Of a stretch of DNA of 64,000 nt, positions 27,027-48,725 are shown one piece after another. The stretch is from a virus (lineage: Duplodnaviria > Caudoviricetes), in IMG/VR virus record IMGVR_UViG_3300035208_004923, positions 192,001 through 256,000 of that record; one strand, 5' to 3'. The translations under genes were made by a program, and so were the position numbers. A model generated the notes under the pieces. It was given only the letters and a program-made list of their open reading frames with translations, had not been told where the DNA came from and did no database searches. The first letter of the stretch is position 1. Each line of letters begins with the position of its first letter.

Positions 27027-27413
27027 TTATACTATAATTTTGTAAGCACCGTTTGCTTCTTTAAAACCTTTTTTTCTCATTACAGTAATTACAACAAGAA
27101 TTAATTCATTATTCTTTCTTGTAAGATTCGCAACAACATTTAAGTTATTTGCTGCATTTGAAATGCAATACTGTTTTCCAACAGTATCAATACCTTTTAA
27201 TTGTCTTTCTCCAATTTCTTCAATTGCTTTTTGTGTCGTATCTAAAATATCTTGGTTTGTAATTACATCACCGCCTTCATCTGTGTGACGAAACTTACGT
27301 TCTTCAGCATGTACAGTAGTATCAATTTCGATTTCAATTTTAATGTCATCGACTAGATTTCCTATTTTGCCTTCCGACATAAATTCATCAAAACTTGGTA
27401 TTCTTTTGTTCAT
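27027..27413 (-). CDS. Tagged small protein; possible RelE/DUF4258-like fold
   Basis: N-terminus MNKRIPSFDEFMSE; TVHAEER and VVITVMRK motifs. Confidence 0.55.
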   Translation of the reverse strand: MNKRIPSFDEFMSEGKIGNLVDDIKIEIEIDTTVHAEERKFRHTDEGGDVITNQDILDTTQKAIEEIGERQLKGIDTVGKQYCISNAANNLNVVANLTRKNNELILVVITVMRKKGFKEANGAYKIIV

Positions 27414-27414
27414 G

Positions 27415-27543
27415 TTAAAAATTATTTTTTATGAATTGATAAATCTGCCATATTTTATTTTCTCTAAACCATTGCTTACAGTCTAAACAAAATATACGCC
27501 ATTTATCTTTTCGACTTATCTCTATTTTTTTCTTTTTTGCCAT
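27415..27543 (-). CDS. Small basic protein (42 aa, CxxC), not in ORF track
   Basis: Hand translation MAKKKKIEISRKDKWRIFCLDCKQWFRENKIWQIYQFIKNNF; fills the gap almost exactly. Confidence 0.45.
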   Translation of the reverse strand: MAKKKKIEISRKDKWRIFCLDCKQWFRENKIWQIYQFIKNNF

Positions 27544-27553
27544 TAAGACATTA

Positions 27554-27856
27554 TTAATAGTATTGTTCTTTTATAACTTTTATGGCTTCTTCGATTGCTG
27601 ACGATAATTCAGACTTAGTTAAGCCAACAGTGCCTAATGCTGTAAGAATTGCTGTTAATGATTTTTCTGCATCATTAATAACTTTTGTTGATGAATTCTC
27701 GTCAGCAGGTTTTGTCATTGTTCCTTCAGGTGTAACTTCTTCCTCATCAACAACTTTCTTTTCAGCTGATTGTTGTGGTTGTGTACTTTGTGCAGGAGTT
27801 GATTTTTGTGTTTCAATCCATTCGGCCATCGATGGAATTCTTTTTATTTCAGACAT
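27554..27856 (-). CDS. Tagged small protein
   Basis: MSEIKRIPSMAEWIE; preceded by late promoter. Confidence 0.6.
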   Translation of the reverse strand: MSEIKRIPSMAEWIETQKSTPAQSTQPQQSAEKKVVDEEEVTPEGTMTKPADENSSTKVINDAEKSLTAILTALGTVGLTKSELSSAIEEAIKVIKEQYY

Positions 27857-27868
27857 AATGTATTTTAT

Positions 27869-27879
27869 TTTATATATTC
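27869..27879 (-). promoter_or_regulatory. Late-type promoter GAATATATAAA
   Basis: Exact motif. Confidence 0.65.
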
Positions 27880-27885
27880 TTTACT

Positions 27886-28332
27886 TTATAATATCATAAA
27901 TTCAAATCTATATCCTGCCTTTAAACACGCAAGTTCTTTTAGATTATTTGTTTTCGATTGAATTTTATATGTAAAACTTGATTTGACTTCAATTATTTTT
28001 CTTTCAGATATGATATAGATATCTGGTATGTAACGATGATCTTTGCCATCAAGACCTTTATAATAAATTTTTCCGATAAACCTTGCAATTGCGTCATCAT
28101 CAACAACTATGTCAGATTCTGCATAATCATTTAAAAGTATGTCAAGTGCTTTAGGTTCTGAACCTTGTACCCACACATGTTTTCCTGATGGGAATGTATA
28201 TGATTTTTTTATAAATCTATTTCCATCATCTTTTTTGATTTCACCAGCACGCATCCATCCATCGTCGGGTCCTTCTCGATATGTCTTTGTGTTTCTGTGA
28301 ACAAATTCACTTGGTTTATCCTTTTCAAACAT
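27886..28332 (-). CDS. PD-(D/E)xK endonuclease, catalytic domain only (paralog of 49528 and 61691)
   Basis: FPSGKHVWVQGSEP...HRYIPDIY...IIEVKS shared with the two plus-strand nucleases. Confidence 0.75.
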   Translation of the reverse strand: MFEKDKPSEFVHRNTKTYREGPDDGWMRAGEIKKDDGNRFIKKSYTFPSGKHVWVQGSEPKALDILLNDYAESDIVVDDDAIARFIGKIYYKGLDGKDHRYIPDIYIISERKIIEVKSSFTYKIQSKTNNLKELACLKAGYRFEFMIL

Positions 28333-28340
28333 AATTAATT

Positions 28341-28592
28341 TTATTCGTCTAATACGTCAATTGTTACACCAAATTCATCACGTAACATTTTACATGCTTT
28401 AATTTTATCTTCATCTTTTGCTGGACCACTTAAAGCAAATCTTTTACCATCGCCATCAATTGATACGATAATTTTTTTGTACCGCATGAAATTTTCCATG
28501 TACGAACATTGATTATTAACGCTTAAATCTCTGAAGTCGTGAATATTTTGTTCATTTATAAATTCTGTTAGCGTCGGTATTCTATTTTTCAT
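28341..28592 (-). CDS. Tagged small protein
   Basis: MKNRIPTLTEFINE. Confidence 0.65.
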   Translation of the reverse strand: MKNRIPTLTEFINEQNIHDFRDLSVNNQCSYMENFMRYKKIIVSIDGDGKRFALSGPAKDEDKIKACKMLRDEFGVTIDVLDE

Positions 28593-28597
28593 GTTTT

Positions 28598-28882
28598 TTA
28601 TTTATTTTCAATTTCGTGTCCGTTTGCTATAAGAATTTTTGCAATTATATTTAAAACACCGGATTGATGATGTGTTGCACCATAATGCATTATTATGCTA
28701 GCTATATCAGATCTGAATATAATTTTCTCATCTTTATCTGCTATATTAATTCCGAAATAATCATAAAAAACTTTCTTTAAAATGTCATATGTCCATTCAG
28801 ATTCTATATACGTTTTGTATGTTCTTGGTGAAACAAACATTTCATTTACATATTCGTTTAATGTAGGTATTCTATTTTTCAT
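28598..28882 (-). CDS. Tagged small protein
   Basis: MKNRIPTLNEYVNE. Confidence 0.65.
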   Translation of the reverse strand: MKNRIPTLNEYVNEMFVSPRTYKTYIESEWTYDILKKVFYDYFGINIADKDEKIIFRSDIASIIMHYGATHHQSGVLNIIAKILIANGHEIENK

Positions 28883-28883
28883 A

Positions 28884-29411
28884 CTAATATAATTTATCTT
28901 TTAAGGATTGATATTTTTCTTCTGCTTTATCAGCTTTTATTTGTAATGGCGCTAATTCTTTTTTGATTTTCTCAATTTTTGTATTTAATTTATTCAATTC
29001 ACCACCTATGCGATTTGCTTCTTTGTCTTTTTCTGCATCTGTTTTAAGATGACCAATAGTTTCTTCTTGGTCATGCATCAAGTTATTATAGTCATCTTGG
29101 TAACTTTTAAGTTCGTATTTCAAATCGCTAACTTGTCCATCTAACGCATAATAAATGTCTTCTGCTTTTTTGATTTCTGTTCTTAATTTATCATCATCAT
29201 TTTTATTTGCTAAATATTGCAAATCATAATCACTGTATTCTTTATTCGATAAGCTAAACTTTCCGTTTTCTTTGCGTATCCATCCATGCTGCGTTTTCAT
29301 GAATTTTTCGCCTTGCACTTCAATGAATCCACCAATTGGAGTTTTTGCAAACCCTGCTGGTAATTTTCCTTCATTTAAAAATTCGTCGAATGTTGGTATT
29401 CTTTGTATCAT
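28884..29411 (-). CDS. Tagged coiled-coil protein
   Basis: MIQRIPTFDEFLNE; C-terminal heptads. Confidence 0.65.
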   Translation of the reverse strand: MIQRIPTFDEFLNEGKLPAGFAKTPIGGFIEVQGEKFMKTQHGWIRKENGKFSLSNKEYSDYDLQYLANKNDDDKLRTEIKKAEDIYYALDGQVSDLKYELKSYQDDYNNLMHDQEETIGHLKTDAEKDKEANRIGGELNKLNTKIEKIKKELAPLQIKADKAEEKYQSLKDKLY

Positions 29412-29415
29412 ATAT

Positions 29416-30030
29416 TTATTTTATTTCTTTAAATTCTTTTCCATTAAATTTGAACCATCCACCCATACTTGTATTTGGGCCACACTCCATGTCAATTTCA
29501 ACAGATATTTGTTTTGCATCGTTATAACCATTTTTTGCAATTGCATCAGCTACAAATTCATTTTCTAACATATCAGTATCAAAAGGATTTGAATCACCAA
29601 GACAAATAAAAATTTTATTAGATTCTTTATGCCAATAAGTTATCCCATATTCGTGATTGCAAATAATTTCAATTGCTTTGGCGTAATTTACAAGTTTTTC
29701 TTCATCTATCAGCGAAGAACTGCTTTCAAAAATATATGATTCATTAACCGGTTCTTTAATTGTTTCGATACTTTTTATAAAATCAGGACCATCACCATCC
29801 CATCCAAAAGATTTTTTGTATTTGCCTGCATCAGGGTCTACAACAATTTCGTATGAATGACCAGTATTGCCTATGCCAGCAATATGTTCTAGCATTTTTA
29901 ATAAACTGCCTGATGGATTTCTTGCAACAATTTTTATAACTATATCGTTATCAGCTATTTCTTTTAATTTTGAATTTACACTAAAATCTTCTTTTATGAA
30001 TTCATCAATAGTCGGTATTCTTTGTATCAT
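29416..30030 (-). CDS. Tagged protein, two modules
   Basis: MIQRIPTIDEFIKE; internal VNES/IFES linker. Confidence 0.65.
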   Translation of the reverse strand: MIQRIPTIDEFIKEDFSVNSKLKEIADNDIVIKIVARNPSGSLLKMLEHIAGIGNTGHSYEIVVDPDAGKYKKSFGWDGDGPDFIKSIETIKEPVNESYIFESSSSLIDEEKLVNYAKAIEIICNHEYGITYWHKESNKIFICLGDSNPFDTDMLENEFVADAIAKNGYNDAKQISVEIDMECGPNTSMGGWFKFNGKEFKEIK

Positions 30031-30048
30031 ATAAAAATGAATATTATT

Positions 30049-30780
30049 TTAATGGAATATCATGAACCAGTCTGGTGAGTTTTCAGAATCAATCTTTTCT
30101 AATAGTTCTTTTATTTCGTCTTGTCCTTCAGATTTTATACCCTCACCATTTATTGTTACGCCACCTGGTAAGTTATATGTAAACATTGTTAAAATTCTTC
30201 CTAATGATATTTTTGCTTGCGCTGTACAATATCTTTGGAATGTCCAATCTTCAAACATTTTGTCTTCTGCTATTTTTATATATGCTTGCATGAAAACATC
30301 AGCTTTAGGGTCTCTACCTAAAATAACTAAACGTCGTGTGTTGTGATTAAAGTCATACGCAATTCTATCTAAGAAAAATGCTCTAGATAAATCCCAATAA
30401 GATTCATATGCAGTTCTTAATACCATATCATCAGCGTTGAATGGCGATAAATAAATTTCCTGCGCAATCATTTTCTCTGCAGAGAAATCTGCACCAAAAT
30501 ACGTGATTCTAGAATTACCTTTGATTTCTTTTACTTCATAAACAGAAACAACACAATCAGGTAATTGAACGGAACGCGTTTTTTTGAATTCTGCAGATTG
30601 GAACACATCTTTCTTAATTACAAAATAATGAGTTTCTACCGAATATTGATAGTTGATGTATGCCCATTTTAATGCCAAGTCAATAATACGATTGAACTCT
30701 TTGTCTGGAATTGCGTATGGCAATGCGCATGCAACTGTGAGTTCATCTTTGATTTGTTGAATAAATTCTTGTCTAGTCAT
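30049..30780 (-). CDS. Neck protein (T4 gp13-like)
   Basis: FQRYCTAQAKISLGRILTMFTYNLPGGVTINGEGIKSEGQDEI matches the gp13 C-terminal signature. Confidence 0.85.
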   Translation of the reverse strand: MTRQEFIQQIKDELTVACALPYAIPDKEFNRIIDLALKWAYINYQYSVETHYFVIKKDVFQSAEFKKTRSVQLPDCVVSVYEVKEIKGNSRITYFGADFSAEKMIAQEIYLSPFNADDMVLRTAYESYWDLSRAFFLDRIAYDFNHNTRRLVILGRDPKADVFMQAYIKIAEDKMFEDWTFQRYCTAQAKISLGRILTMFTYNLPGGVTINGEGIKSEGQDEIKELLEKIDSENSPDWFMIFH

Positions 30781-30794
30781 TATACGACATTATT

Positions 30795-31490
30795 TTATTT
30801 CCAGTCTTCTGGAAGTTCGTCAGGTTTACCTAAAGCTTTCGCTCTTTTTATTATGTGTTTTTTTGTTTCTGCTTTATTTGCACCTGTTCTGCCAAATGCA
30901 CGTATTGCGTTTTGCAAATCTTTAACAGTTTCAATTGGATATGAGCCATCTTCCATTGCAAAACCTTTATCTGTTAGTTTTTGTCTTTCTTCAGATGAAA
31001 ATTCCCGTTCAACAATATATGATATATGACTGAATGGCACATTTATTTCTTTTCCTTTATATTTAACAACAGCAAAATCTTCAGACCTTGATGATACACG
31101 ATTTATAACAGTTTCTTCTCCCAGTTCATTACTTGTTCCTGGGACAACAAATTCTATCTTATCACCTTTTGTTAATAAACGGATATCTTTATTTTCTAAT
31201 AATTCGCTTTCAAGAACAGCTTCAAGATCTTTTTTAACGAATTGTGTATTTGCATATATTCGCCATTCATCAAATTGATTTTGCATCATTGCAGCAATTT
31301 TTTCGGAACCTTTATAAATTTCATAATTCTTTAATCCATTCTTTTGGTTTATCTTATTGCATTTATATCCTTTTAATTTATTAGTTTCAATTGCTTTTAC
31401 TAATTTATCACTAGGTACCTCAATAAAATTAGAATCTTGATTTATTGATTCGTTTATAAATTCGTCTAATGTTGGTATTCTTTTTTTCAT
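30795..31490 (-). CDS. Tagged multi-module protein with C-terminal DUF6582-like domain
   Basis: MKKRIPTLDEFINE; AMEDGSYPIETVKDLQNAIRAFGR...HIIKRAKALG. Confidence 0.6.
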   Translation of the reverse strand: MKKRIPTLDEFINESINQDSNFIEVPSDKLVKAIETNKLKGYKCNKINQKNGLKNYEIYKGSEKIAAMMQNQFDEWRIYANTQFVKKDLEAVLESELLENKDIRLLTKGDKIEFVVPGTSNELGEETVINRVSSRSEDFAVVKYKGKEINVPFSHISYIVEREFSSEERQKLTDKGFAMEDGSYPIETVKDLQNAIRAFGRTGANKAETKKHIIKRAKALGKPDELPEDWK

Positions 31491-31494
31491 GTGT

Positions 31495-32916
31495 TTATCT
31501 TTTTCCTTTTCCTTTAGTTGCTTTTAAAATTTTTGCTTGTTTATAATCTTTTGGATTAGGTTCTTTATAAACACCGAACGTTCCTTTAAGTCTTTTCGGT
31601 TTATCTTCAGTTATGCTAACAATACTTGTTTCTGGCGAGATATCTGCATTTGCACCTTTTTTACCTTTTCTGAAAACACCTTCCTCCATTTTGCAGTCAA
31701 TTATATAAATGCCATCATTTGCAACATAGCAATCTTGCATAAGATTCGATTTTTGAACATTTGTATTTTCAACTTTACAGCCTTTTAATGTGTTATCTTT
31801 AATTACATCACATTCAATAAAATGTGTTTTATCCATTTCGCAATTGTAAAATTTGCATCTTGTAAAAATTCCATAGCCAGTACAATGAACTAGTTCTAAA
31901 TCAAAGCATTCAACATTTTGCAAATCTGCATCTTTAATTTGTAATGCGCCTATTTCAGAATCGTAGTTAATATCCATTTTTTCACATTTTGATGCAACAA
32001 GAAATTTGAACAACATATCGTTAACATGTGACCATGATGATTTTAATGTTTGAATATCATTTTTCATATCAAAAGTTAAATTAATATGTGGAAACGTTTT
32101 TTTGAACAATTCTGGGTTTTTATAGCAGTCAAGATATTTTTTATGGTCATCTAAAATTTTGTTTAATTTCGTGATGTCATTTTGATTTAATGTAGTTGTT
32201 TGCGATAACGTATAAAGTGATGTAATTGAAAACTCAAGTACCTCTAAGATATCTTGTTTTTTCTTTTGATAATCTGCACCACCAAGAAATCTAAATTCGA
32301 TATAATTAAGTGGTGCTTTTGTTAAGTTAACAGCATAATATTTTGTTGGCGCAACAGTAAATTGCGAATTAGCATTTGCAACACCGATGTCGAATATGCT
32401 ATTGATTACCATGTTCTTTATTGATTTTGCATAAACAGAATCTTTTCTGTTTGGAAATCTTTTCCAAACAAATTCTTCATTAAATCCTAGGCAGAATTTA
32501 ACTTTGTTCATGTGTGAAATTGGTGTTTGCATTTTAATTTTCCATGCATCGAATGATATGTTTAATTGTATTGCTGTTCTTTCAGTTGTCCATGCGTTTT
32601 CATCAATCCATTTTAACACTTTAAGTAACACGATTTTCGCATCAGCAAAAGGCAATGGCCCAGTGATTAATTCTTTACAATCTTTACCGCCTGAAAAGTC
32701 AGATTCAATTTTAAATAAATTAGCAGTTGTTGTTACTGGTGTATGATATTTTAATTCTGGCGAATTAAAGCTATCAACATTCATAGGAACAACAACTTTA
32801 ATGCCTAATGTTTCAGTAAGACTACGTGCAACAATGAGAGGTTCTTCCTTTGTTAAAAATTCAAACTCGAATCCAATTTTTGAACTATTTAGTATTTCGT
32901 CTTCTGTATATTTCAT
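31495..32916 (-). CDS. Putative amidoligase (COOH-NH2 ligase) with C-terminal beta-helix-like repeats
   Basis: GFEFE, ELITGP, KYYAVNL, IEFRFLGG motifs. Confidence 0.7.
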   Translation of the reverse strand: MKYTEDEILNSSKIGFEFEFLTKEEPLIVARSLTETLGIKVVVPMNVDSFNSPELKYHTPVTTTANLFKIESDFSGGKDCKELITGPLPFADAKIVLLKVLKWIDENAWTTERTAIQLNISFDAWKIKMQTPISHMNKVKFCLGFNEEFVWKRFPNRKDSVYAKSIKNMVINSIFDIGVANANSQFTVAPTKYYAVNLTKAPLNYIEFRFLGGADYQKKKQDILEVLEFSITSLYTLSQTTTLNQNDITKLNKILDDHKKYLDCYKNPELFKKTFPHINLTFDMKNDIQTLKSSWSHVNDMLFKFLVASKCEKMDINYDSEIGALQIKDADLQNVECFDLELVHCTGYGIFTRCKFYNCEMDKTHFIECDVIKDNTLKGCKVENTNVQKSNLMQDCYVANDGIYIIDCKMEEGVFRKGKKGANADISPETSIVSITEDKPKRLKGTFGVYKEPNPKDYKQAKILKATKGKGKR

Positions 32917-32933
32917 AAACTATTTATATTTTA

Positions 32934-32944
32934 TTTATATATTC
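32934..32944 (-). promoter_or_regulatory. Late-type promoter GAATATATAAA
   Basis: Exact motif after terminator. Confidence 0.65.
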
Positions 32945-32950
32945 AAAACT

Positions 32951-32979
32951 AAAAAAGACCGTATCAAAATACGGTCTTT
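32951..32979 (-). terminator. Intrinsic terminator of the S1-like gene
   Basis: AAAGACCGTAT-4nt-ATACGGTCTTT plus T-tract. Confidence 0.8.
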
Positions 32980-33000
32980 CAATGTATTGCAAAATTTGAA

Positions 33001-34128
33001 TTATTTTGATTCTGTTTCCTCTGTGAAGAAGATTTTGTCTTCTTTAATTTCAGTTATCTTAACAACAATGATTTCGCCCATTTCGTAAGTTCGTTTAACA
33101 TTGTTTTTACCGATAAGACCGGATTCGCCAGATTTTAATCTAACGAATACGCCGTAATCTTTGATACCTGTTACTTTTCCTTTGTGAATTTCATCAACTT
33201 TAATTGAATCTTCCTCTGAACCTGGTTCAAAATTAGTAAGAACTAAACGATTGTCTTTGTCGATTTCTCTAACCCATGTCACTAGTTCAGAACCACTTTT
33301 TATTTGTCTGTTATCAAATTTTTCGCGAACATCAGATGTCATTTTTGATGTATGTAATAAACCAGTGAATTGCCCATAGAATTCAACAAATACGCCATGT
33401 TTACTGCAACCTGTTACAATTCCTGTGTGCTGTACTGTCCAGTCATGTTTATCAAGTAACGATGGTAATACATGTTCAAGATATTTTTTATGACTTACAA
33501 TAAATGTATTAATGTCACTTAAATAATCTTCAATCATTACTTTTACGTTTTGACCGATATATTCATCGAAATTTACAATTTTGTTTGCTGCCGCTAGACC
33601 GCCTGGAAGGAATGCCTGGACACCGCATACATCAACAATAAATCCACCTTGATTTTTGCCTATTACTTTTGCTTCGAATGCACTTGTAGGTTTTTTCAAT
33701 TGTTCTCTAAAATCATCTTTTACTTTTTCTGCATATCCTGCAAGTAAAGAAGCACGAAGATTTGGTGTTGATTGTAAAACTAAGATTTGGTGTTTGCTGT
33801 CGATGAACGATTGCTTTCCTTCTTTTGAAGTTATCCACGCCATGAAACTTTTATGGTCACAATCGTGAAGTTCTAAGAATCGCTTTTCTTTCTTTATATC
33901 AATTGGGATATTGATAGAGTTGTTTACTTCGAAAAAGATTTCGTTTTTTTGTGTTCCCGCAATTCCTGTGATTTTAACAAGTTCGCCTGCACTAAGATCT
34001 TTTTTGATGAATGATGACTCGCTACGACAGCAGTATAATTTATAAAGGTCTGTTGCATAATCTTCTTGGCAGAAAATTCTGTCGTCATTGTTGATTTTTT
34101 TAACTGATAAGTTTTCGGTTAAACGCAT
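33001..34128 (-). CDS. Ribosomal protein bS1-like protein (three S1 domains)
   Basis: AKVIGKNQGGFIVDVCGVQAFLPG; GIVTGCSKHGVFVEF...GLLHTS; GKVTGIKDYGVFVRL...GLI. Confidence 0.8.
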   Translation of the reverse strand: MRLTENLSVKKINNDDRIFCQEDYATDLYKLYCCRSESSFIKKDLSAGELVKITGIAGTQKNEIFFEVNNSINIPIDIKKEKRFLELHDCDHKSFMAWITSKEGKQSFIDSKHQILVLQSTPNLRASLLAGYAEKVKDDFREQLKKPTSAFEAKVIGKNQGGFIVDVCGVQAFLPGGLAAANKIVNFDEYIGQNVKVMIEDYLSDINTFIVSHKKYLEHVLPSLLDKHDWTVQHTGIVTGCSKHGVFVEFYGQFTGLLHTSKMTSDVREKFDNRQIKSGSELVTWVREIDKDNRLVLTNFEPGSEEDSIKVDEIHKGKVTGIKDYGVFVRLKSGESGLIGKNNVKRTYEMGEIIVVKITEIKEDKIFFTEETESK

Positions 34129-34180
34129 TTTTTTAGGTTTGTGTGTTAGTACTAAATTAATCTATAATCTATATTATATT

Positions 34181-34191
34181 TTTATATATTC
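34181..34191 (-). promoter_or_regulatory. Late-type promoter GAATATATAAA
   Basis: Exact motif about 50 nt upstream of the S1-like gene. Confidence 0.6.
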
Positions 34192-40012: not shown

Positions 40013-42121
40013 TTATTTATTTACTTGTACAGGTCCACTTCCTTTGTTTGCTGCATCATTTACTGTTTTGTTGAAATATCCTAATTCTCGTTTGATTGAT
40101 AATGCAACAGAATCAATATTTCCTTGGTTATATGTTTTGCCACCATTTTTTATATACCAATCATAATCCTTATCTTTAAAGCTTGGTGCTTTATGTTCAA
40201 CAGGTTTACCACCAGCAGTTGCGCCTGCAACATAATCAACGTATGGATTTCTTCCTTTACCTGTTTTTGAATCGACTGCTGTTTCATGTGCTGCAGCAGT
40301 ATCGCCAACACCTGTAGGCAATGTATATATTCGTCCTCGTCCTCTATTAAACATGGATTCAACACCTGCTCTATCTAATGACATTCCGTGATCCAATGTA
40401 ACAGTAACTGTCATTTCAGTTGGGAAATCATCAGGTCCAAGTTCTTCACCAAATGAAAACGAGCATCCTGTACAAATTAAATTTCCTATCATCATCGTAG
40501 GATTTAACGGATTTCCTATAACTAAATGCCATTCACCAACAGGCTCACCTGTTAATAACGAACGATATCCGTGAAATAACGGTACAGATCCACCTTTTCT
40601 AACCAATTCGACCATACCTGTTTTTGCAAGATTTTTTAATGCGCCGATAGGGTCACTCATTGCGCTATCAAAAAGTTTTGATAAATTTGTAACTGATGTA
40701 CTTATTGATTCTGTAATTGCGCCATAAAATGCAACAGGATCTCCTTTGTACCAAGCAGCCATACCTTTTTTCCATGGGAATCCTTGCATTTGACCTCTGA
40801 ATCTTCGTGCACCTCCCCAGAACGAACCTGTGCCATACGATAACAATAAAAAGTTTGCAATTATGTCAAGCATAGCAGCTTTAGTATTTATTCCGCCTAT
40901 TGAGTTTGCGCTATAATGGAACTTTAAAGATATTGATTGACTGAAATCTAAACCTGGCTTTCTTCTTTTAACACTGTCAATTCTATTAACAGGTCCTTGT
41001 ATTCTGTTTGCATACGGACCTTCAGCATATGGGTCAGGTGGAGTTTGTCCATCATGTAAACGGCCCGCTCTTGTTGATTCACCTGAAAGCACAGATAATG
41101 TTTTTCCCATACCTGCCAAAAACCCACCAGGTAAATTACTAGCATCACCTCTTTGTTCTGTTAAGTCATCAACTTGCGCTTGTAAATCGTCCCATGGTAA
41201 TTTTACAGTAAATGACATTAATGAATCCATAGTATTGCCAGTTTCATTGCCTAACCATGTTACTGCTTGAGCAATTGGCAAAAACTTGCTGTTTAATTTT
41301 TCAGGCTTTGGATTTGTTTTGCCTGATTTGTCAGGTTCTGGTCCAAAATCAGGAAATTCTAATGAACCGTACGTTGGCACAGCGTATCGTCGTAATGTGA
41401 TAAGTCGATTGTTTGGCACTTTTCTCCAATATTTGCAAAAAGCAAAATCTGAATAATAGTAAGGTGTTCTTCCTGCCGGGTCGATTTGGCCGTATGCAAT
41501 AAGAGCAGATGTTGTAGGTTCTTTTGATGCATTCTTCATATTAAGATGCGGCCCATCGTTTACAACAATATTATCGGTTTCGTACCATCTTCTTTCGCCT
41601 TCAACATCAAAGTATAATTTTTTATCATCCTTTGTTGCGCCAGGACCAGACAATGTCAAATAAGCATACCAGTTATTTATAGCAGGTACACCAGTTGTAG
41701 TATCATCATTAGGGTCCATTTTTTCTTTTGCACTTTTATCATACCCACCTTCATTTGTTGTTTGAATTTCTTCTGGGTTAAGTGCATATACTGAATCTGC
41801 ATAAGGATTACCTTTTCTTGGTTTTGCAAGTCTAGGGTCGAATGCAATTCGTGAATCGTTTTTTGGCGGTTTTGCAAGATCATCATTTTGTTGAACAACA
41901 TCAGCAGGTTTTTGTGGAACTGGACGAGATGGAAAACCGACATATCCTTTAGCACCGCCTTCAATCAATTTCCATGTCATGTTTTTTGATTGCGTTGTAT
42001 GTTCCTCAGTTGTAACAGGCTGTCCATCTACAGTATCACTACCGTCAATAATTTGCACGATTTTGATATTGAAAGAATCGCCTTTCTCACCTTCGTAATA
42101 ATGTGTGTATGAATTTGCCAT
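40013..42121 (-). CDS. Putative baseplate/tail-tube initiator-like structural protein
   Basis: GNLICTGCSFSF...DDFPTEMTVTVTL tube-initiator-like C-terminus; context. Confidence 0.45.
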   Translation of the reverse strand: MANSYTHYYEGEKGDSFNIKIVQIIDGSDTVDGQPVTTEEHTTQSKNMTWKLIEGGAKGYVGFPSRPVPQKPADVVQQNDDLAKPPKNDSRIAFDPRLAKPRKGNPYADSVYALNPEEIQTTNEGGYDKSAKEKMDPNDDTTTGVPAINNWYAYLTLSGPGATKDDKKLYFDVEGERRWYETDNIVVNDGPHLNMKNASKEPTTSALIAYGQIDPAGRTPYYYSDFAFCKYWRKVPNNRLITLRRYAVPTYGSLEFPDFGPEPDKSGKTNPKPEKLNSKFLPIAQAVTWLGNETGNTMDSLMSFTVKLPWDDLQAQVDDLTEQRGDASNLPGGFLAGMGKTLSVLSGESTRAGRLHDGQTPPDPYAEGPYANRIQGPVNRIDSVKRRKPGLDFSQSISLKFHYSANSIGGINTKAAMLDIIANFLLLSYGTGSFWGGARRFRGQMQGFPWKKGMAAWYKGDPVAFYGAITESISTSVTNLSKLFDSAMSDPIGALKNLAKTGMVELVRKGGSVPLFHGYRSLLTGEPVGEWHLVIGNPLNPTMMIGNLICTGCSFSFGEELGPDDFPTEMTVTVTLDHGMSLDRAGVESMFNRGRGRIYTLPTGVGDTAAAHETAVDSKTGKGRNPYVDYVAGATAGGKPVEHKAPSFKDKDYDWYIKNGGKTYNQGNIDSVALSIKRELGYFNKTVNDAANKGSGPVQVNK

Positions 42122-42139
42122 TAATGATATCTTATTTAT

Positions 42140-42150
42140 TTTATATATTT
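42140..42150 (-). promoter_or_regulatory. Late-type promoter variant AAATATATAAA
   Basis: One mismatch to consensus; heads the baseplate operon. Confidence 0.5.
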
Positions 42151-42232
42151 ATAAGAATTCATCAGCTGATTTGTAGGAAAAAACTTATCATAAAAAGATC
42201 TTTCATTTTTGATATAGTTGTATATTCAAATG

Positions 42233-42270
42233 AAAAAAAAGTCAATCTAATGGCTATAGATTGACTTTTT
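42233..42270. terminator. Intrinsic (possibly bidirectional) terminator
   Basis: AAAAAGTCAATCTA-7nt-TAGATTGACTTTTT. Confidence 0.8.
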
Positions 42271-42304
42271 ATGAATAGATAAGTTTGGGTGAGTATCTTT
42301 GTAA

Positions 42305-42751
42305 TTATCGGTTGTTTATCCAATAGTACATTGGATTTTTAATCGTATCGCATTGCATGATTCTAACGCGTTTTGTTTTCGGATATAGAATGATTTCGTC
42401 GAATAGCGGATAAACATCTTTGTTTGAATTTTCTTCATCGTCTATAAAAATAAATTTATCAATTGACTCTGTATCATTGATGTATTCTTTCAAATTCTCA
42501 ATCTTTTCGATAGTCAATTCAGTATTTATATAAATGATATTGAAAAATTTCTTTTTTGCAATAGATTCTCGTAAGATGCTTTGAATTTCGTTATTCACAA
42601 TGAATTGCGAATATTCATTCATAGATTCACTATTATAGTTAAAAGATTTTATTATATCTTGAACATTAATAACAGAAAATGAACGAAAATTTAAAAACGA
42701 ATTTTTAACTTTTTCATAATCTGCATTAGTTACGTAAAGTTTCATTTGCAT
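42305..42751 (-). CDS. Hypothetical protein
   Basis: 148-aa ORF in operon. Confidence 0.55.
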   Translation of the reverse strand: MQMKLYVTNADYEKVKNSFLNFRSFSVINVQDIIKSFNYNSESMNEYSQFIVNNEIQSILRESIAKKKFFNIIYINTELTIEKIENLKEYINDTESIDKFIFIDDEENSNKDVYPLFDEIILYPKTKRVRIMQCDTIKNPMYYWINNR

Positions 42752-42771
42752 ACGGTAATCTTTAATTTTGA

Positions 42772-43167
42772 TTATTTATTTGCCTTTTTTTCTGCAAGTA
42801 TTTGATTCTGTTTTTCGATTTTAGCCGCTTGTTTTTCTAAACGTTTTCGTTCAATTTCGTAATTGTGTAACACAAAAGCTTTTGCTTCTTCATATGTTTT
42901 TCCTTTACGTATAAAATTACCTTTATGGTCAACAACATCGGCCATAAGTTCTCTTAATATCTTTGCTTCTTTTTCAACAGCTTGTTTGTCTTGTTCGTTT
43001 ATTACGCTTTCTTTGAATTGCAAATTAAGCTGTTTGCCCATTTCCATTCTTCTTTGCTGAAATTCTGCACGTTCCTTTGGATCTGTTGGCTTTACAAGAT
43101 TGAAAGTTTTTTCTAATTGTTTTCTTTCTCTTCTGCTGTAATGTTTTTTTGCTGTTGCTGTTGACAT
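42772..43167 (-). CDS. Hypothetical charged helical protein
   Basis: 131 aa, K/E-rich; overlaps the 3' end of 43113..43901. Confidence 0.55.
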   Translation of the reverse strand: MSTATAKKHYSRRERKQLEKTFNLVKPTDPKERAEFQQRRMEMGKQLNLQFKESVINEQDKQAVEKEAKILRELMADVVDHKGNFIRKGKTYEEAKAFVLHNYEIERKRLEKQAAKIEKQNQILAEKKANK

Positions 43168-43901
43168 TGTTCTTGTGTATTAATGTTATAAATTTTAATT
43201 AAATTATTTTTGATTTGACTATCCAAATCGTTTTGTTTTATTTTATTTATCAATGCATTTAATAAGCCATCCATGTTATCATTTACAAAATCATCATCTA
43301 GCATATCAAAAAATCCAAGAACTGGTAACTTAACTTTTAATGTTAAATTCATCTCTAATTCGACTTTTTTTGTTTTGTCAATTATTGCATTTAATGGATT
43401 TTCAATTGGCGGACGATATGATTGCAAGTTATCATGTGAAATACCTTGCGTGAAATCTGCGTGTGACATTGATTCATCGCCATCTTCTCTTAATCCACCA
43501 GCAAAATTATCATTACGAGATTGCTGTACTTGTTGAACAGGCGGCATATCATCAGGATGCGGAATTGCTTTAGCAGTTCCCATTGAGTATTTTCCATCTT
43601 TCATGCTATTTGCTAATTCTTCCTCTGTTGGATAATCATAAGCAGCAACTTTCTTATTTGACGGTTTCTTTTGCTTTGGTGGTTGTGCAACTGGTACTTC
43701 ACCAATGGCAAATAATGGTTCGGCAAGTGATGGTATTTGTACTAAGAATTCGTCAACAAGATTTTTGTTTAATAGTCTACCGCTTTCAAATACCAAGAAT
43801 GCAGCATCACCAATTGTTTGTTCTGATTGTAATTTGTCGACTTGTGAATAGTTTTCACCTTTTTTCCATTGATAGCATAAAGGTTCTTCTTTTTTGGCCA
43901 T
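43113..43901 (-). CDS. Hypothetical protein
   Basis: 262-aa ORF. Confidence 0.55.
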   Translation of the reverse strand: MAKKEEPLCYQWKKGENYSQVDKLQSEQTIGDAAFLVFESGRLLNKNLVDEFLVQIPSLAEPLFAIGEVPVAQPPKQKKPSNKKVAAYDYPTEEELANSMKDGKYSMGTAKAIPHPDDMPPVQQVQQSRNDNFAGGLREDGDESMSHADFTQGISHDNLQSYRPPIENPLNAIIDKTKKVELEMNLTLKVKLPVLGFFDMLDDDFVNDNMDGLLNALINKIKQNDLDSQIKNNLIKIYNINTQEQCQQQQQKNITAEEKENN

Positions 43902-43910
43902 ATTTTTAAA

Positions 43911-44252
43911 TTAAAAAGTAATATAATTTCTATACATATAAAGATACTCTCGCATCCATTCAGTTTGTTCTTCTGTTCGACTCCATTCGATTAAATCTTC
44001 TCTAAAATTCTTCAGAAAATCTCGGTAATGTGCTTCATGATCTCCTTTAGATATAACGTTTAATTCTCGAGACGGTATTGTGAATGTATGAGATGTTCCT
44101 TTTATTCTCCAGTATACAGTAGTTTTTGTTCCTGCAAAATTTGCATTTGCATATTCGATTGTTATTGGATTAAGCCATCCGGCTAAATTTGCAATTTCTA
44201 ATTCTTTTATGCTCGATTTTTCGAATGCATTAAAATCAAAATGATGTGGCAT
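43911..44252 (-). CDS. Hypothetical protein
   Basis: 113-aa ORF; weak class-2 promoter at 44272-44298. Confidence 0.55.
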   Translation of the reverse strand: MPHHFDFNAFEKSSIKELEIANLAGWLNPITIEYANANFAGTKTTVYWRIKGTSHTFTIPSRELNVISKGDHEAHYRDFLKNFREDLIEWSRTEEQTEWMREYLYMYRNYITF

Positions 44253-44306
44253 AATGTCTTTCTGTTATGTACTTATATAATTTGTATACTTAAGTTTTAA
44301 TTAGTT

Positions 44307-44981
44307 TCAATCCCATTTTGCTTTTGGCAGAAGCTTTTTACCTAATTCTATAAATTTTTCACGTACTGTATTGATTTCTATTTCATTAATAAACAGATGT
44401 TTTCTTTCTTCTAGCCACATTTCAATTATCGTGTTCATTGATACTTTCATCGTTTTTGCTTTTTGATGAAAACCGTATACGTATGCATATAATTCGGGGT
44501 ATTCAAGAACATAACTGAAATATGATTCATCGTCACTTTCAATATCATTAATTTTCAAAAAATCTTTTTTGATGATTAATTCTAAATCCTCATCTTTGTT
44601 TGTGTTATTAAATTGGGACACATGCTCAATTTCATGTCGAATTGTATCTTTAAATTCTGCTATGAAATTATTATATTCTAATGGAAACTTTTTATTGTTT
44701 ATAATGATACTAAAAATAACATATGAAAAATTGCCGTGATCATAATTATCAACACAACCGTCTATGTCAAATGCCATTTCAGCATCAGGATCTTTCGATA
44801 TTCTTACGGTAAATGGCACAACATCAATAAAATCAATGTCGCTTTGTATAATTATGTTTTTCTTTCTAGATTTTAAGAATTTTTTCAATTCTTGAACATA
44901 ATATCTACTTATTTCTAATACGATAGCATTATAACTTCCAGTAAATACAAATGTTGCAAAATCTATTCGTTTACGTTTCAC
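44307..44981 (-). CDS. HExxH zincin-like protein
   Basis: IRHEIEHVSQ plus downstream ELYAY. Confidence 0.55.
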   Translation of the reverse strand: MKRKRIDFATFVFTGSYNAIVLEISRYYVQELKKFLKSRKKNIIIQSDIDFIDVVPFTVRISKDPDAEMAFDIDGCVDNYDHGNFSYVIFSIIINNKKFPLEYNNFIAEFKDTIRHEIEHVSQFNNTNKDEDLELIIKKDFLKINDIESDDESYFSYVLEYPELYAYVYGFHQKAKTMKVSMNTIIEMWLEERKHLFINEIEINTVREKFIELGKKLLPKAKWD

Positions 44982-45238
44982 GTTAACCCTTCTTTAATCT
45001 TTGTTCTTATTTCATCTTCGTATTTGTCCCATTCAACATTATCATATTCTTCTTTCATTTTATTTAGAATATATTCTGTTGCTTCTCCGCAATCATAACT
45101 GTTTGGATTATTGTAATTTGGAAATTTTGTTGCGATATCTTCCCAATACGCATCTTCCAATGAATTGTCATATATTGCATCAGCTTCAGGCGATTCCATT
45201 AACAGAAATTCGTCAAATGTAGGTATTCTTTTGTTCAT
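44978..45238 (-). CDS. Tagged small acidic protein
   Basis: MNKRIPTFDEFLLME. Confidence 0.65.
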   Translation of the reverse strand: MNKRIPTFDEFLLMESPEADAIYDNSLEDAYWEDIATKFPNYNNPNSYDCGEATEYILNKMKEEYDNVEWDKYEDEIRTKIKEGLT

Positions 45239-45243
45239 TGCGT

Positions 45244-45624
45244 TTATGAATTTAATTGTTGTGTTTGGTCATCAGATACTGTTACGTCCGATGTAGTATC
45301 GGTTGATGCATTATCAGTTGTTGTATTATCAGTTGTTGCATTATCTGTTACTTCATTTCTATGCAATGGCATATTGCCATCTTTTGATAATTTTCTAGCA
45401 CCTAATAAAACAGTTCCTAATGTAACCATACCGAGACTTTGTAACAATACATTGTCTGCTCCTGATGAAACTCCTAAAAACCAATACATTGCCAACCCTG
45501 ATACAAATCCTATTAATCCTGTCATCACAGACAATACACCTGCGAAACCGGAACCTGATGTTTTTCCGTTGTTATTACTGAAAATTTCTCTCCAGTTAAA
45601 TTTCGTGATATTTGAAATGTCCAT
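45244..45624 (-). CDS. Two-TM membrane protein, holin-like
   Basis: NGKTSGS motif, two hydrophobic helices, Thr/Asp-rich tail encoded by 15-nt tandem repeats (45311-45350). Confidence 0.5.
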   Translation of the reverse strand: MDISNITKFNWREIFSNNNGKTSGSGFAGVLSVMTGLIGFVSGLAMYWFLGVSSGADNVLLQSLGMVTLGTVLLGARKLSKDGNMPLHRNEVTDNATTDNTTTDNASTDTTSDVTVSDDQTQQLNS

Positions 45625-45638
45625 GATATTTAATTATT

Positions 45639-47048
45639 TTAATATACTTTTGCAAACACAGATGAAAATGATGATTGCGATGCAGCATATAAAACTATAT
45701 CATTTATAATATCATTTTCTTTGTTTGAATTTTTTATTGCACTTAAAACTTTCATTCCAAGATATTTTGAAAAAATCCATCCTTGTTCGCTAGGATTTGA
45801 TGCTTTGCCTTTTACAAAATCGCCAAACGTGTTTATATCATACGAATGAGAGTTATCAAATTCATTGTATAATAAGAACATGTCATCAATGAAATTTGCA
45901 TCAGGCTTCATTGAATTTTTCTTTATTTCAGTATAATTCAAAATTGGTGGCGTTACACCATTATAATTCATAATTCCTAAAATAGGTGTCAAACCGCATT
46001 TGCCACCAGCTGCGTATTTGCCTTGTATTTCTAATGCCCAATTTGAAAAAGCATTAAATGTTCTACCTTCAGATTTGCCACCATTGAATGACATAAATAC
46101 TTTCATATTTGATTCAAATGTTGATTTTTTTCCGTCCGAAACAGTATATGTTATAGGATGAAAGTTTGGTTTTTCGCTACCGCCATTAAATATTTCAACC
46201 TTAGGTTTACCTTCGGTTTTCTTTAACGATATTGGAACAAACTGTCTTTTATTGAATAACTCTAAAATCTCTTCATTTAGCGCAGGTAATGATGTAGTGT
46301 TTAAATCTGCAACAATAACAGATGGCAATATACCAAAAATATCGGCGGGATTCCATTTATCAGAATTAAAAGAAATTTCAGAATTTGTTCCTGCTGTTTT
46401 TGCGAGTTCATATATTTTTTTAAAGATTGCTGAACCTCTATGAAAAATCATTCCTTTTGAAATAATGCCTTTATTGAATAATTCATTTGCAATTACAACT
46501 GATGATGTAATCCAATCATCTTCAATTTTGCTTATAACATCATCAACCGATGTTGATGCTTGAACGTATTGTGCCGCTTTTTTCAATACATCAGGAGTGA
46601 ATGCGCTTTCATCAGATTCTGAATTTAAAATATTGCAAACAGCAGAACAATAATAGCATTGTGCAGATTCATTTAAATCTGTATTATCAGCACCTCCGCG
46701 TTTTCCGCCTCCGCTACCAAATTCAGCAGTTTTCAAGAATTGCGATGTTGATATAGTAGTCGACTTGCCCTTTATTTCACCTTTTAAATTGAATGATAAT
46801 GGGTGTGTTAAATCTAAATTATTTATTTTATTGATTGCATCATCAGTATCAGTAACCGTAAAAAAACCACCTTTTACTAATTCTATAGGCTCGTGATTCA
46901 TTATTTTACGTTTCAAAATTTCGGTGCGAAGTTCACCTGTTTTTGAATTTATTTTTCCTAATTCTTGTGCACCAAGGTTTGTTTCGTTTAACTGTGTTTT
47001 TAAATACTCGTCTAAACCTAAAAAACCATTAATGTTTATATGCTTCAT
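45639..47048 (-). CDS. Putative PD-(D/E)xK-like nuclease
   Basis: NESAQC, KWNPADIF, ISLKK motifs; N-terminal LDEYLKTQLNE. Confidence 0.45.
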   Translation of the reverse strand: MKHININGFLGLDEYLKTQLNETNLGAQELGKINSKTGELRTEILKRKIMNHEPIELVKGGFFTVTDTDDAINKINNLDLTHPLSFNLKGEIKGKSTTISTSQFLKTAEFGSGGGKRGGADNTDLNESAQCYYCSAVCNILNSESDESAFTPDVLKKAAQYVQASTSVDDVISKIEDDWITSSVVIANELFNKGIISKGMIFHRGSAIFKKIYELAKTAGTNSEISFNSDKWNPADIFGILPSVIVADLNTTSLPALNEEILELFNKRQFVPISLKKTEGKPKVEIFNGGSEKPNFHPITYTVSDGKKSTFESNMKVFMSFNGGKSEGRTFNAFSNWALEIQGKYAAGGKCGLTPILGIMNYNGVTPPILNYTEIKKNSMKPDANFIDDMFLLYNEFDNSHSYDINTFGDFVKGKASNPSEQGWIFSKYLGMKVLSAIKNSNKENDIINDIVLYAASQSSFSSVFAKVY

Positions 47049-47060
47049 TTATTATTTTAT

Positions 47061-47071
47061 TTTATATATTC
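47061..47071 (-). promoter_or_regulatory. Late-type promoter GAATATATAAA
   Basis: Exact motif. Confidence 0.65.
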
Positions 47072-47098
47072 ATCAAAAATTGTCTTTATGAACTGCAT

Positions 47099-47125
47099 AA
47101 AAAAAAGGGAACCGAAGTTCCCTTT
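47099..47125 (-). terminator. Intrinsic terminator with C(UUCG)G tetraloop
   Basis: Minus strand AAAGGGAAC-TTCG-GTTCCCTTTTTTT. Confidence 0.85.
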
Positions 47126-47169
47126 ATTCAGCATTGCCGACCACTTTGTTTTTAAGAAACAAAGAAAAC

Positions 47170-48291
47170 TTATTCCATTTCAACAAAATGAGGATATTCA
47201 ACTTTTTGTTGTGAAGCAATTAATTCCATGTCAAGTTCTTTTGCTGTAAATATGCCAGTGATTGCATTTTTCAATTCGTAAGCATGAGCTTCAGACATTT
47301 TCGATTCTTCAATATGTGATGCCAACCAAGTGTTCAAATTGATAAAATCATACGCGTTAATTCCAGTATCTGCACTTGCTTTCCACGTTTTCGATTTTTT
47401 GCAAACGTTATCGCCCCATGCTTTGTAGAATGGCGCTTCGATAAAATATTTATCTGCTAATTCTTCATACCCACGTTTAATCAAAAAGTTACGGTGATTA
47501 TAGAATTCACGTAATGAAATTGTTGTTCCTTTCATATGTTCAGCAAATCCTTTTATAAGATGTGCAACATTATCGTTATCTTCAGATAATGCATTTGATA
47601 TTGCCTTTTCAAGTTTCTCATTATTAAATGATGCTTTTGAGATATTTGAACGGAAACCGTATGATGGTTTTCTCATGCCATTACCGCAGATAAGACGGTC
47701 GAAAAATGGTTCGTTAATAAAAGAAGTTGAATTGAATATTAATGTTTGACCTTGTTTCCATAAGTCATTTTCAAAAACTTCAATTGGATTACTATCATTT
47801 AATAATGAAATTGTGTATTTGGAAGTTTCATTATCAAATCCTATTTTAGATAATGACCAATCAACAGATGATGTTGATAAAATGCGAGTTACTGTTTCAA
47901 CAAGTGCTTTAGAATTTGTTAAATCATCAGCCTTATTTTTCTTTGGATTTTTGAAGAAGATTGCATCAATTGTATGCGTTCCATCAGGATTATGTAGCAA
48001 TGATCCGTATAAATTAACATCGCCTTTTGCTGCTTTTAATCTGCTTGAAACTAAATTCCAATCAGTCACTTCCATTAAACTTTGATATTCTTTAAATGCA
48101 GGTTTTGCGTTTAAAACACTTAAAACAGCATCAGCTGCTCTGTCAGTTAAATCCATTTCATCAACAATGAATTTATCATTAATTACAATGTCTTGTAAAT
48201 TGAATTGCACAATATCACGTCTTGTTGGTGTTTCACGTTCAATTGCTTCAACGAATTGATTAATTTGGTCAATAGTACCTTTATTTTTCAT
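47170..48291 (-). CDS. DUF932-like protein
   Basis: RLICGNGM motif; NAYDFINLNT. Confidence 0.5.
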   Translation of the reverse strand: MKNKGTIDQINQFVEAIERETPTRRDIVQFNLQDIVINDKFIVDEMDLTDRAADAVLSVLNAKPAFKEYQSLMEVTDWNLVSSRLKAAKGDVNLYGSLLHNPDGTHTIDAIFFKNPKKNKADDLTNSKALVETVTRILSTSSVDWSLSKIGFDNETSKYTISLLNDSNPIEVFENDLWKQGQTLIFNSTSFINEPFFDRLICGNGMRKPSYGFRSNISKASFNNEKLEKAISNALSEDNDNVAHLIKGFAEHMKGTTISLREFYNHRNFLIKRGYEELADKYFIEAPFYKAWGDNVCKKSKTWKASADTGINAYDFINLNTWLASHIEESKMSEAHAYELKNAITGIFTAKELDMELIASQQKVEYPHFVEME

Positions 48292-48327
48292 ACTTTTTAA
48301 ATTAAGAATTTGTAAAATTATTTATCA

Positions 48328-48355
48328 ATTATATACACAAGTAATTAAAAGTTTT
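48328..48355 (-). promoter_or_regulatory. Class-2 promoter AAAACT-N13-GTATATAAT
   Basis: Exact consensus. Confidence 0.65.
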
Positions 48356-48725
48356 AATTCCATGTAGGTCGATGTCTTGTATATTTTGTAGGATCGTCAT
48401 CAGCCTGTGCAACTTTATTAATTAGGTTTTGTTCTGAATCGTCTTCATTATGTTCAGTATTCGATTTCGCTTCTGGACCTAATGAACGTGAACGTTCTTT
48501 ATACATAAAGTCAATAATTTTGTCTGGGTATTTACTACCGCCATTTGCATTAAGTTCTTCTCTTGCTGTTCGTAAATCATCATGTGTTTGCGCCATTACA
48601 AAATACGCTCTAAGTTCATCACCATATTTTGCAATTTGGTCAGCCATTCCTTTATAATCATCAAAACTTGGAATTCTTTTTCTATCATTTGATGAACCGG
48701 GTGTATCGTATAAACTATTTGACAT
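48354..48725 (-). CDS. Tagged small protein (tag after a short extension)
   Basis: ...NDRKRIPSFDDYKG; own late promoter. Confidence 0.6.
   Translation of the reverse strand: MSNSLYDTPGSSNDRKRIPSFDDYKGMADQIAKYGDELRAYFVMAQTHDDLRTAREELNANGGSKYPDKIIDFMYKERSRSLGPEAKSNTEHNEDDSEQNLINKVAQADDDPTKYTRHRPTWN

Follow-up and report, generated by a model that had tools for sequence, protein, structure and literature searches.

A short N-terminal leader on 64 proteins of an uncultured large phage probably loads them into the virus head

The subject of this work is a short N-terminal leader in a 64,000-nucleotide stretch of phage DNA, referred to as the window (bases 192001-256000 of contig C1; IMG/VR virus record IMGVR_UViG_3300035208_004923). 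C1 is 425,361 bp long with 31% G+C, codes for a Gp23-type major capsid protein and a Peptidase_S77 prohead protease, and belongs to an uncultured phage that is a distant relative of T4 and of the Lak megaphages. A sequence-only reading of the window had proposed that nine open reading frames (ORFs) carry nearly the same N-terminal peptide in front of unrelated bodies. All nine were recovered on the minus strand where that reading had placed them, and eight begin with the peptide at Met1. They are listed here with the score of the leader profile described below, where available.

27027..27413, minus strand: tagged ORF of 128 residues; leader at 27372-27413 (14 codons), ending M-S-E then G; score 25.8
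27554..27856, minus strand: tagged ORF of 100 residues; variant leader, in which two additional residues precede K-R-I-P and W-I-E forms the end
28341..28592, minus strand: tagged ORF of 83 residues; canonical leader, F-I-N-E then Q; score 32.9
28598..28882, minus strand: tagged ORF of 94 residues; leader ends Y-V-N-E then M; score 31.6
28884..29411, minus strand: tagged ORF of 175 residues; leader ends F-L-N-E then G; score 32.7
29416..30030, minus strand: tagged ORF of 204 residues with two fused cargo modules; leader ends F-I-K-E then D; score 27.4
30795..31490, minus strand: tagged ORF of 231 residues; canonical leader, F-I-N-E then S; score 35.0
44978..45238, minus strand: tagged ORF of 86 residues; one-residue insertion in the leader, which ends L-M-E then S; score 27.3
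48354..48725, minus strand: ORF of 123 residues; first half of the tag at residues 16-25 (48651-48680); score 12.2, above noise

The consensus of this leader, which we call the tag, spans 14 N-terminal residues and reads M-K-x-R-I-P-(T/S)-(L/F/I)-(D/E)-(E/D)-(F/Y)-(I/L/V)-N-E. A pattern scan of the kind proposed in the sequence-only reading, using R-I-P-x3-[EDNQ]-[FYW] in all six frames of the window, returned exactly these nine ORFs and nothing else. An atypical member, which may not be cleaved, is the ORF starting at 48725, with R-I-P-S-F-D-D-Y at residues 17-24 behind a 15-residue extension and without the terminal h-x-E (h, hydrophobic). Two weaker variants had also been put forward. The candidate starting at 44981 lacks both the acidic part and h-x-E and was rejected as a tag. 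The other lies in the following gene.

45639..47048, minus strand: ORF of 469 residues, phrog_1462 (function unknown), with a possible degenerate leader (L-D-E-Y-L, then L-N-E at residues 20-22)

Both of its motifs are present, but the match falls below the noise level of the profile and its membership is uncertain.

The leader profile was run against every stop-to-stop frame of the 1.6-Mb bin that contains C1, and scores of at least 10 were accepted. On C1, 64 Met-initiated ORFs score 10-38 and are separated by a clean gap from the noise (6.5 or less), and there are no matches in the other 77 contigs of the bin (1.18 Mb). The similarity of the leaders is therefore not a product of chance, and the nine ORFs of the window are a sample of a genome-wide tag system. 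Tagged ORFs make up roughly 10% of the approximately 617 C1 ORFs of at least 60 residues and form 14 clusters between 51 and 412 kb, with 52 of the ORFs on the minus strand; in 62 of the 66 top hits the profile match starts at Met1 of the model. Among 61 tags, position 8 is L, F or I in 60 and position 11 is F, Y or H in every one. At the end of the tag, counting back from the predicted cut, P3 is I, L or V in 55 tags, P2 is N in 42 and P1 is E, and the residue that follows (P1′) is S, A, G, N or Q in 51.

The bodies behind the leaders are as unrelated as had been proposed. With the first 18 residues removed and BLASTP applied at E<1e-3, the 64 cargo bodies fall into 63 families, the sole exception being a 100%-identical tandem duplicate. 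That duplication lies at C1 264585-265663 (L005:8097-9663), where the two bodies are 100% identical over 158 residues, the tags start differently (M-E-R-R and M-K-Q-R) and a third tagged gene nearby has an identical 80-nt upstream sequence; it is either a recent gene amplification or an assembly repeat. Tagged proteins range from 70 to 387 residues (median 146), and a membrane-like segment is found in 1 of the 64. The median isoelectric point (pI) of the mature cargo is 6.5 and only 14% lie above 8.5, a distribution by which basic, DNA-binding cargo was rejected; that IPI-III of T4 are small and basic is a feature of those particular proteins and not of how they are targeted. Pfam searches with the 20 largest tagged proteins revealed an M16 peptidase, a UPF0227-type hydrolase and a 2H/Acb1-like phosphoesterase, together with a sub-threshold LicD-like stretch in one protein. 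For the nine window proteins, searches of Pfam at the family cut-offs and of PHROGs at E<0.005 gave no match. Their bodies include an acidic, low-complexity sequence (27554..27856), a very acidic one of pI 4.05 (44978..45238) and one with a coiled-coil-like C-terminal half, whose Pfam matches are to coiled coils and sub-threshold only (28884..29411).

The textbook example of a transferable signal for protein loading into a virus head is the capsid-targeting sequence of T4. Its cargo proteins, Ip1-3, inhibit host restriction enzymes after injection, and each T-even phage has about three of this kind. The leader of about ten residues on which the sequence-only reading had drawn is borne out by the T4 record, in which IPII and IPIII start M-K-T-Y-Q-E-F-I-A-E then A, and IPII carries a second K-L-E then A nine residues after its leader. 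Five of eight positions agree between T-L-D-E-F-I-N-E of the tag and T-Y-Q-E-F-I-A-E of T4. According to genetic work on T4, targeting depends on residues 4 and 7 of the leader and processing on residues 8 and 10 (PMC9026906). All four align with the conserved tag positions 8, 11, 12 and 14, and hydrophobic or aromatic residues occupy both of the targeting positions in the tag. Both systems place a short leader at the N terminus of otherwise unrelated proteins, with a core of T-h-x-E-F-I-x-E and an end of (I/L)-x-E before a small residue, and both have an S77 protease, a capsid propeptide ending in the same motif as the leader and, as in T4 IPII, a second site near the leader. They differ in that the leader here has 14 residues instead of 10, with the extra and highly conserved R-I-P, that its P2 residue is almost always Asn, that about 64 proteins carry it compared with three or four in T4, that the cargo includes enzyme domains and is not basic, and that the protease is fused to a scaffold. 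Bridging leaders occur in metagenomic homologues (for example, M-K-Y-F-K-T-Y-S-N-F-I-N-E), and because homologues in other metagenomic phages carry such intermediates, the leaders appear to form a graded series from that of T4 to that of this phage.

The enzyme predicted to cut the tag is also encoded on C1. Its Peptidase_S77 domain (PF03420) matches with E=1e-11 and 45 bits against a cut-off of 27, and its G-E-L-D-H-P (His) and I-S-S-R-A (Ser) motifs align with those of T4 gp21 and are invariant in 16 relatives, which places it among the gp21-type proteases. The protease occupies the N-terminal roughly 200 residues of a 683-residue protein encoded at C1 280540-282591, the remainder of which is an 11-residue-repeat coiled coil that we take to be the scaffold. 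This part holds six [ILV]-N-E sites compared with 0.65 expected (P=6e-5), and relatives have equivalent sites in matching columns of the alignment. The propeptide of T4 gp23 is 65 residues long (PMC9026906), and its cut, L-T-E65 then A, lies about 12 residues before the first conserved block of the mature protein. The capsid protein of C1, encoded at 278799-280508, shares W13-x-P15 with gp23 at identical positions, and its first downstream h-N-E is H-A-L-N-E43 then S-S, about 22 residues before the first gp23-conserved block. This L-N-E-S site is kept in relatives with capsid proteins that are 50-66% identical, and is unchanged where that identity is only about 55%. In the comparison between tag end and capsid cleavage site suggested in the sequence-only reading, L-N-E43 then S falls at the predicted propeptide boundary. 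The end motif of the tag also appears to mark the maturation sites of capsid protein and scaffold. Among the tagged proteins themselves, 14 of 64 have a second [ILV]NE[SAGNQ] within residues 15-40, where its density is 0.84 per 100 residues compared with 0.06 in the bodies and 0.047 in the background (14-18 times).

Two tagged proteins of the window have candidate sites further inside the chain.

29725..29751, minus strand: internal leader-derived site of the 204-residue protein (residues 94-102, P-V-N-E-S-Y-I-F-E then S-S), between its two modules
30798..31007, minus strand: C-terminal 70-residue domain of the 231-residue protein (residues 162-231), which has D-G-S-Y-P-I

Homologues of the C-terminal half of the 204-residue protein exist as separate ORFs of 114 and 124 residues with leaders of their own, and the internal stretch at the module junction aligns with the N-terminal leaders of these stand-alone homologues (P0083 and P0084, alignment A2), in keeping with the internal processing suggested for this protein. 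In the 231-residue protein, an orthologue of which (P0006) has an identical leader, a second site is likely, but at I-V-E161 then R and not at the V-L-E or L-L-E originally proposed. A cut after I-V-E161 is likely because homologues carry h-x-E directly before the domain: in 11 close, AT-rich homologues it is followed by (R/K)-E-F-S, and in P0008 and in contig G001 the junction is supplied by the end of the leader itself. Distant HK97-type phages have no Glu before the domain. The predicted leader-derived sites sit exactly at module junctions. The domain belongs to no Pfam family and is widespread in phages (D-G-S-Y-P-I ... G-R ... L-P-x-x-W). It is 50-70% identical to a domain in S78- or ClpP-type prohead protease proteins, standing before or after the S78 (HK97-type) or ClpP domain and sometimes together with ChaB or DUF5872, and may itself be a head-interior or scaffold-binding module.

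Tagged genes also share a promoter-like motif. There are 11 copies of GAATATATAA in the window compared with 2.6 expected, and four of them head units that together contain all nine ORFs, as had been claimed.

27870..27879, minus strand: late-promoter-like motif heading the unit from 27856 to 27413, which extends further, through gp25-like and larger baseplate genes
32935..32944, minus strand: late-promoter-like motif of the unit with the tagged ORFs starting at 31490, 30030, 29411, 28882 and 28592
47062..47071, minus strand: late-promoter-like motif heading the unit from 47048 to 45624 to 45238
48738..48747, minus strand: late-promoter-like motif heading the ORF that starts at 48725, with GAATATATAA 22 nt upstream of the ATG

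The ORF starting at 27856 begins 23 nt downstream of its motif. The form [GT]AATATATAA, which we take to resemble the T4 late promoter core, precedes the protease-scaffold gene, many large untagged ORFs and GIY-YIG-type genes on C1. Its nearest same-strand upstream copy lies at a median distance of 1.4 kb from tagged genes and 8.0 kb from other ORFs, and is within 5 kb for 89% and 37% of them, respectively; the P value of this comparison overstates independence because tagged genes are clustered. The proposed tie between the tag and late-type genes is consistent with this proximity.

The design of the tag can be followed into related phages, whose cargo is largely different. The nearest named neighbours of the capsid protein are those of an uncultured 462-kb phage (47% identity) and of Prevotella Lak megaphages (about 40%), and IMG/VR holds 41 contigs with capsid proteins that are 49-76% identical in the best aligned segment and 49-66% identical over near-full-length matches. 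In the contig closest to C1, G001 (217.7 kb; 66% identity in the capsid protein), there are some 25-30 leaders of like design, with a variable residue in place of Pro6 as a lineage-specific variant. Thirteen of its tagged genes lie consecutively and directly upstream of the protease gene, and homologues of only 5 of the 64 cargo bodies occur in G001. Orthologues of the 128-residue protein in five other metagenomic phages all keep a leader; its first half differs among them (K-I-V, R-L-L, K-V-P), and no variation is seen in h-x-x-(F/Y)-h-x-E or in Glu14. In relatives further away the leaders are looser, as in M-K-H-I-K-L-F-E-S-F-I-N-E. Variation of the first half by lineage, together with exchange of cargo, is what one expects if all tags of a phage must fit one shared receptor. 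R-I-P-type tags were absent near the capsid gene of the 41 IMG/VR relatives, where only looser variants were seen. A strict tag pattern at the DNA level matched four stretches in IMG/VR; three of them belong to related large phage contigs and are genuine tags, and the fourth, in a contig with 60% G+C, looks like a chance match. A megablast search with 12 kb of the window against the phage collection gave no match.

These findings are consistent with a model in which the tag targets proteins to the capsid in the manner of T4, includes its own S77 cleavage site and has been expanded to some 64 cargo proteins, a reading to which we give a probability of roughly 0.7. Tagged genes would be transcribed late, alongside virion genes. 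Residues 7-14, following the proline, would form a short amphipathic helix with positions 8, 11 and 12 as its hydrophobic face; (T/S)-x-x-E at positions 7-10 after Pro6 resembles the classic helix N-cap pattern, and the AlphaFold model of the 128-residue protein has a helix at residues 8-13 at low confidence. During prohead assembly the helix would dock the cargo on the scaffolding core, the likely partner being the coiled-coil C-terminal part of the 683-residue protease-scaffold fusion. The S77 protease, which would also remove the capsid propeptide and fragment the scaffold, would then cut after Glu14, within (I/L/V)-N-E followed by S, A, G, N or Q, and the freed cargo would stay in the head and leave with the DNA at the next infection. 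We infer each of these steps, namely helix formation, scaffold docking, cleavage, head retention and ejection. The phage-specific address label with swappable cargo envisaged in the sequence-only reading agrees with the T4-like residues, the S77 protease, the shared end motif and the turnover of cargo, and the tag probably does load cargo proteins into the phage head.

Several points weigh against this model. The presence of tagged proteins in the virion, their cleavage and their injection are deduced from sequence. The cargo is not basic, unlike the T4 internal proteins, and the M16 peptidase, the hydrolase and the LicD-like protein could plausibly act late in the cytoplasm and not from the virion. 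The ORF starting at 48725 carries its tag internally and without the cleavage motif. The tag is four residues longer than the T4 leader, and nothing in T4 corresponds to R-I-P, which is conserved most strongly of all, so the likeness may reflect either homology or convergence. No T-even phage is known to package more than about a twentieth as many protein species as the 64 here. There is also no obvious equivalent tag within 20 kb of the capsid gene in Lak-A1 and LR756500.1.

The main rival explanation accepts that tagged proteins enter the prohead, and holds that most are disposable core or scaffold parts like T4 gp67 and gp68, which would assist in building a very large head, be degraded and be expelled before DNA packaging, and would not be injected effectors. 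The map offers it some support, since 16 tagged genes lie on either side of those for the protease and the capsid protein (C1 264-286 kb) and gp67 and gp68 have the equivalent map position in T4; many tagged proteins are small, some are coiled-coil-like, and a second cleavage site near the tag is frequent. However, bodies are not enriched in [ILV]NE[SAGNQ] and the scaffold is strongly so, and because of this difference the bodies do not seem designed for degradation. Enzymes such as the M16 peptidase, the 2H/Acb1-like phosphoesterase and the hydrolase are also odd components for a disposable core, and essential assembly parts would not be expected to have only 5 of 64 members shared with a close relative. 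We therefore consider this account unlikely. A slightly less probable one is that the leader signals some other process, such as chaperone recruitment, compartment targeting or timed degradation, and resembles that of T4 by convergence. The prominence of R-I-P would fit such a signal, as would some cargo that looks cytoplasmic or envelope-directed. It would not account for the recurrence of the end motif at the capsid propeptide boundary and repeatedly in the scaffold, for the coincidence of the T4 targeting and processing residues with those conserved here, or for the 13-gene array directly upstream of the protease in G001, and the low frequency of membrane-like segments argues against it as well.

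By far the least probable account is that the leader belongs to a mobile 5′ cassette at the DNA level, made up of promoter, start region and first codons, which recombination has spread as it has the PeSL cassettes in T4-type phages (PMC2839356), and that the peptide is functionless. PeSL-type conservation lies in the DNA, as a promoter and stem-loop, and not in a peptide. The tag has a different pattern: at positions 6-14 the amino acids are kept and synonymous codons are used roughly as in the genome as a whole. Proline is encoded by CCA in 32 tags, CCT in 19, CCG in 6 and CCC in 2, aspartate by GAT in 27 and GAC in 15, leucine by five different codons, and Ile12 by three codons about equally often. 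Apart from promoter motifs the upstream regions are unrelated, the 80 nt shared after the recent local duplication being a point for the cassette; a separate promoter motif is lacking for most tagged genes, and orthologues keep the amino-acid pattern with different sequences. Because synonymous codons vary at positions 6-14 and the upstream sequences are unrelated, selection acts on the tag peptide, and free synonymous variation excludes a DNA-level cassette as the cause of tag similarity. A bias that could be read in favour of the cassette is confined to the codons for Arg4 (AGA in 55 of 61) and Ile5 (ATA in 53 of 61), compared with 50% and 35% genome-wide. The pair AGA-ATA stands at codons 4-5 in about 88% of tags (for example, window 31476-31481), a nucleotide-level bias that is possibly linked to translation initiation.

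Loading of proteins into heads for delivery is known from other phages, and a literature search found no description of this tag or its peptide strings. The Dar proteins of phage P1 enter the head through their N-terminal regions, and this loading is hierarchical and protein-dependent. They are likewise anti-restriction cargo that is injected, and differ from the system proposed here in having no common cleavable tag. The ip loci of T-even phages encode at least 10 Ip types, of which Ip1-3 each block one GmrSD type IV restriction enzyme (PMC12373910). They resemble the tagged genes in placing unrelated, fast-turnover cargo behind one packaging leader in clusters within variable regions; the tagged genes, in contrast, form 14 clusters over 360 kb with cargo roles predicted from sequence alone, and the Acb1/2H-like tagged protein would represent another anti-defence class. 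In phiKZ and SPN3US, ejection or inner-body proteins are processed by a gp21-like protease (PMC5694885, PMC7411985, PMC10052503). Those phages are similar in their giant heads with about 50 protein species, the large ejected mass and cleavage after Glu in a short motif, but their propeptides are mostly longer than 100 residues and share no single tag (PMC5694885), and their cleavage logos are different (A-L-E in SPN3US, for example). The long individual propeptides of those phages have no parallel here, where one short, uniform tag of 14 residues is used. The load seems physically plausible as well: with tens of copies for each of 64 species, its mass would be similar in order of magnitude to that of the SPN3US ejection proteins, which is reported to exceed 40 MDa (PMC7411985).

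Two tagged proteins offer leads as to what the cargo might do. Outside the window, at C1 267348-267902 (L005:11348-11902, minus strand), a tagged protein of 185 residues matches the 2′-5′ RNA ligase/2H superfamily and reaches 27.3 bits with Pfam Acb1, an anti-CBASS phosphodiesterase, against a cut-off of 27. If the head-loading model is true, a tagged Acb1-like anti-signalling enzyme would be a new delivery mode for its class. The 128-residue cargo (27027-27413) has an invariant T-x-H-A-E-E-R-K-x-R-H motif. Its AlphaFold model is of middling quality (predicted local distance difference test score 60.7), and Foldseek found no match for it at an E value of 0.001 or better. The best VIA-align Z scores, 5.0-5.8, include many ParE/RelE-type toxins and are below the level for a claim of shared fold; the nearest named Atlas cluster is DUF4258 (0.83). 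A RelE/ParE-like fold is a weak lead only; if it is real, the phage may package a nuclease-like effector.

The window also contains features beyond the tag system. Neighbours of the tagged genes include baseplate-type genes, among them one for a gp25-like protein, and homing-endonuclease-like genes. Two genes of the latter kind (DUF7487 or TnsA-like endonucleases) lie among the tagged-gene arrays at 27886-28332 and 49528-50199. A 375-residue protein with several S1 RNA-binding domains is encoded at 33001-34128, within the tail and baseplate block and with its own GAATATATAA motif in front. The 702-residue ORF at 40013-42121 has no family match and lies in the sole stretch of the window with raised G+C (0.38 compared with about 0.30). 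At the level of the contig, the ends of C1 overlap, the first 4,593 bases being repeated at the far end (1-4593 and 420769-425361) with 108 mismatches, which gives a genome size of about 420.8 kb. The mismatches may reflect an assembly that merged two population variants or, alternatively, diverged terminal repeats. Contigs C2-C78 of the bin (1.18 Mb, about 30% G+C) resemble a small bacterial genome, and the whole bin was scored as 88.8% complete.

If the tag is a head-loading leader, this phage shows the T4 principle expanded about twenty-fold, with cargo that is almost wholly different even in a close relative. A broader proposal is that a Lak-related megaphage clade uses a single programmable N-terminal address to preload about a tenth of its proteome and injects it as a takeover and counter-defence kit, to which we give slightly less than an even chance. 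Such a kit would comprise at least 60 fast-evolving proteins, including the M16 peptidase, the Acb1-like phosphoesterase and possibly a RelE/ParE-fold protein. The head-loading model, if true, would explain part of the use that giant phages make of their extra genes and capsid volume. It would also supply a sequence rule for finding candidate injected proteins, including anti-defence proteins, in metagenomic phages, and would predict exact mature N termini that can be checked by mass spectrometry. If the broader proposal holds, the tag would be a sequence-only readout of the injected proteome of uncultured giant phages, and could be attached to foreign proteins as a means of bringing them into very large capsids.

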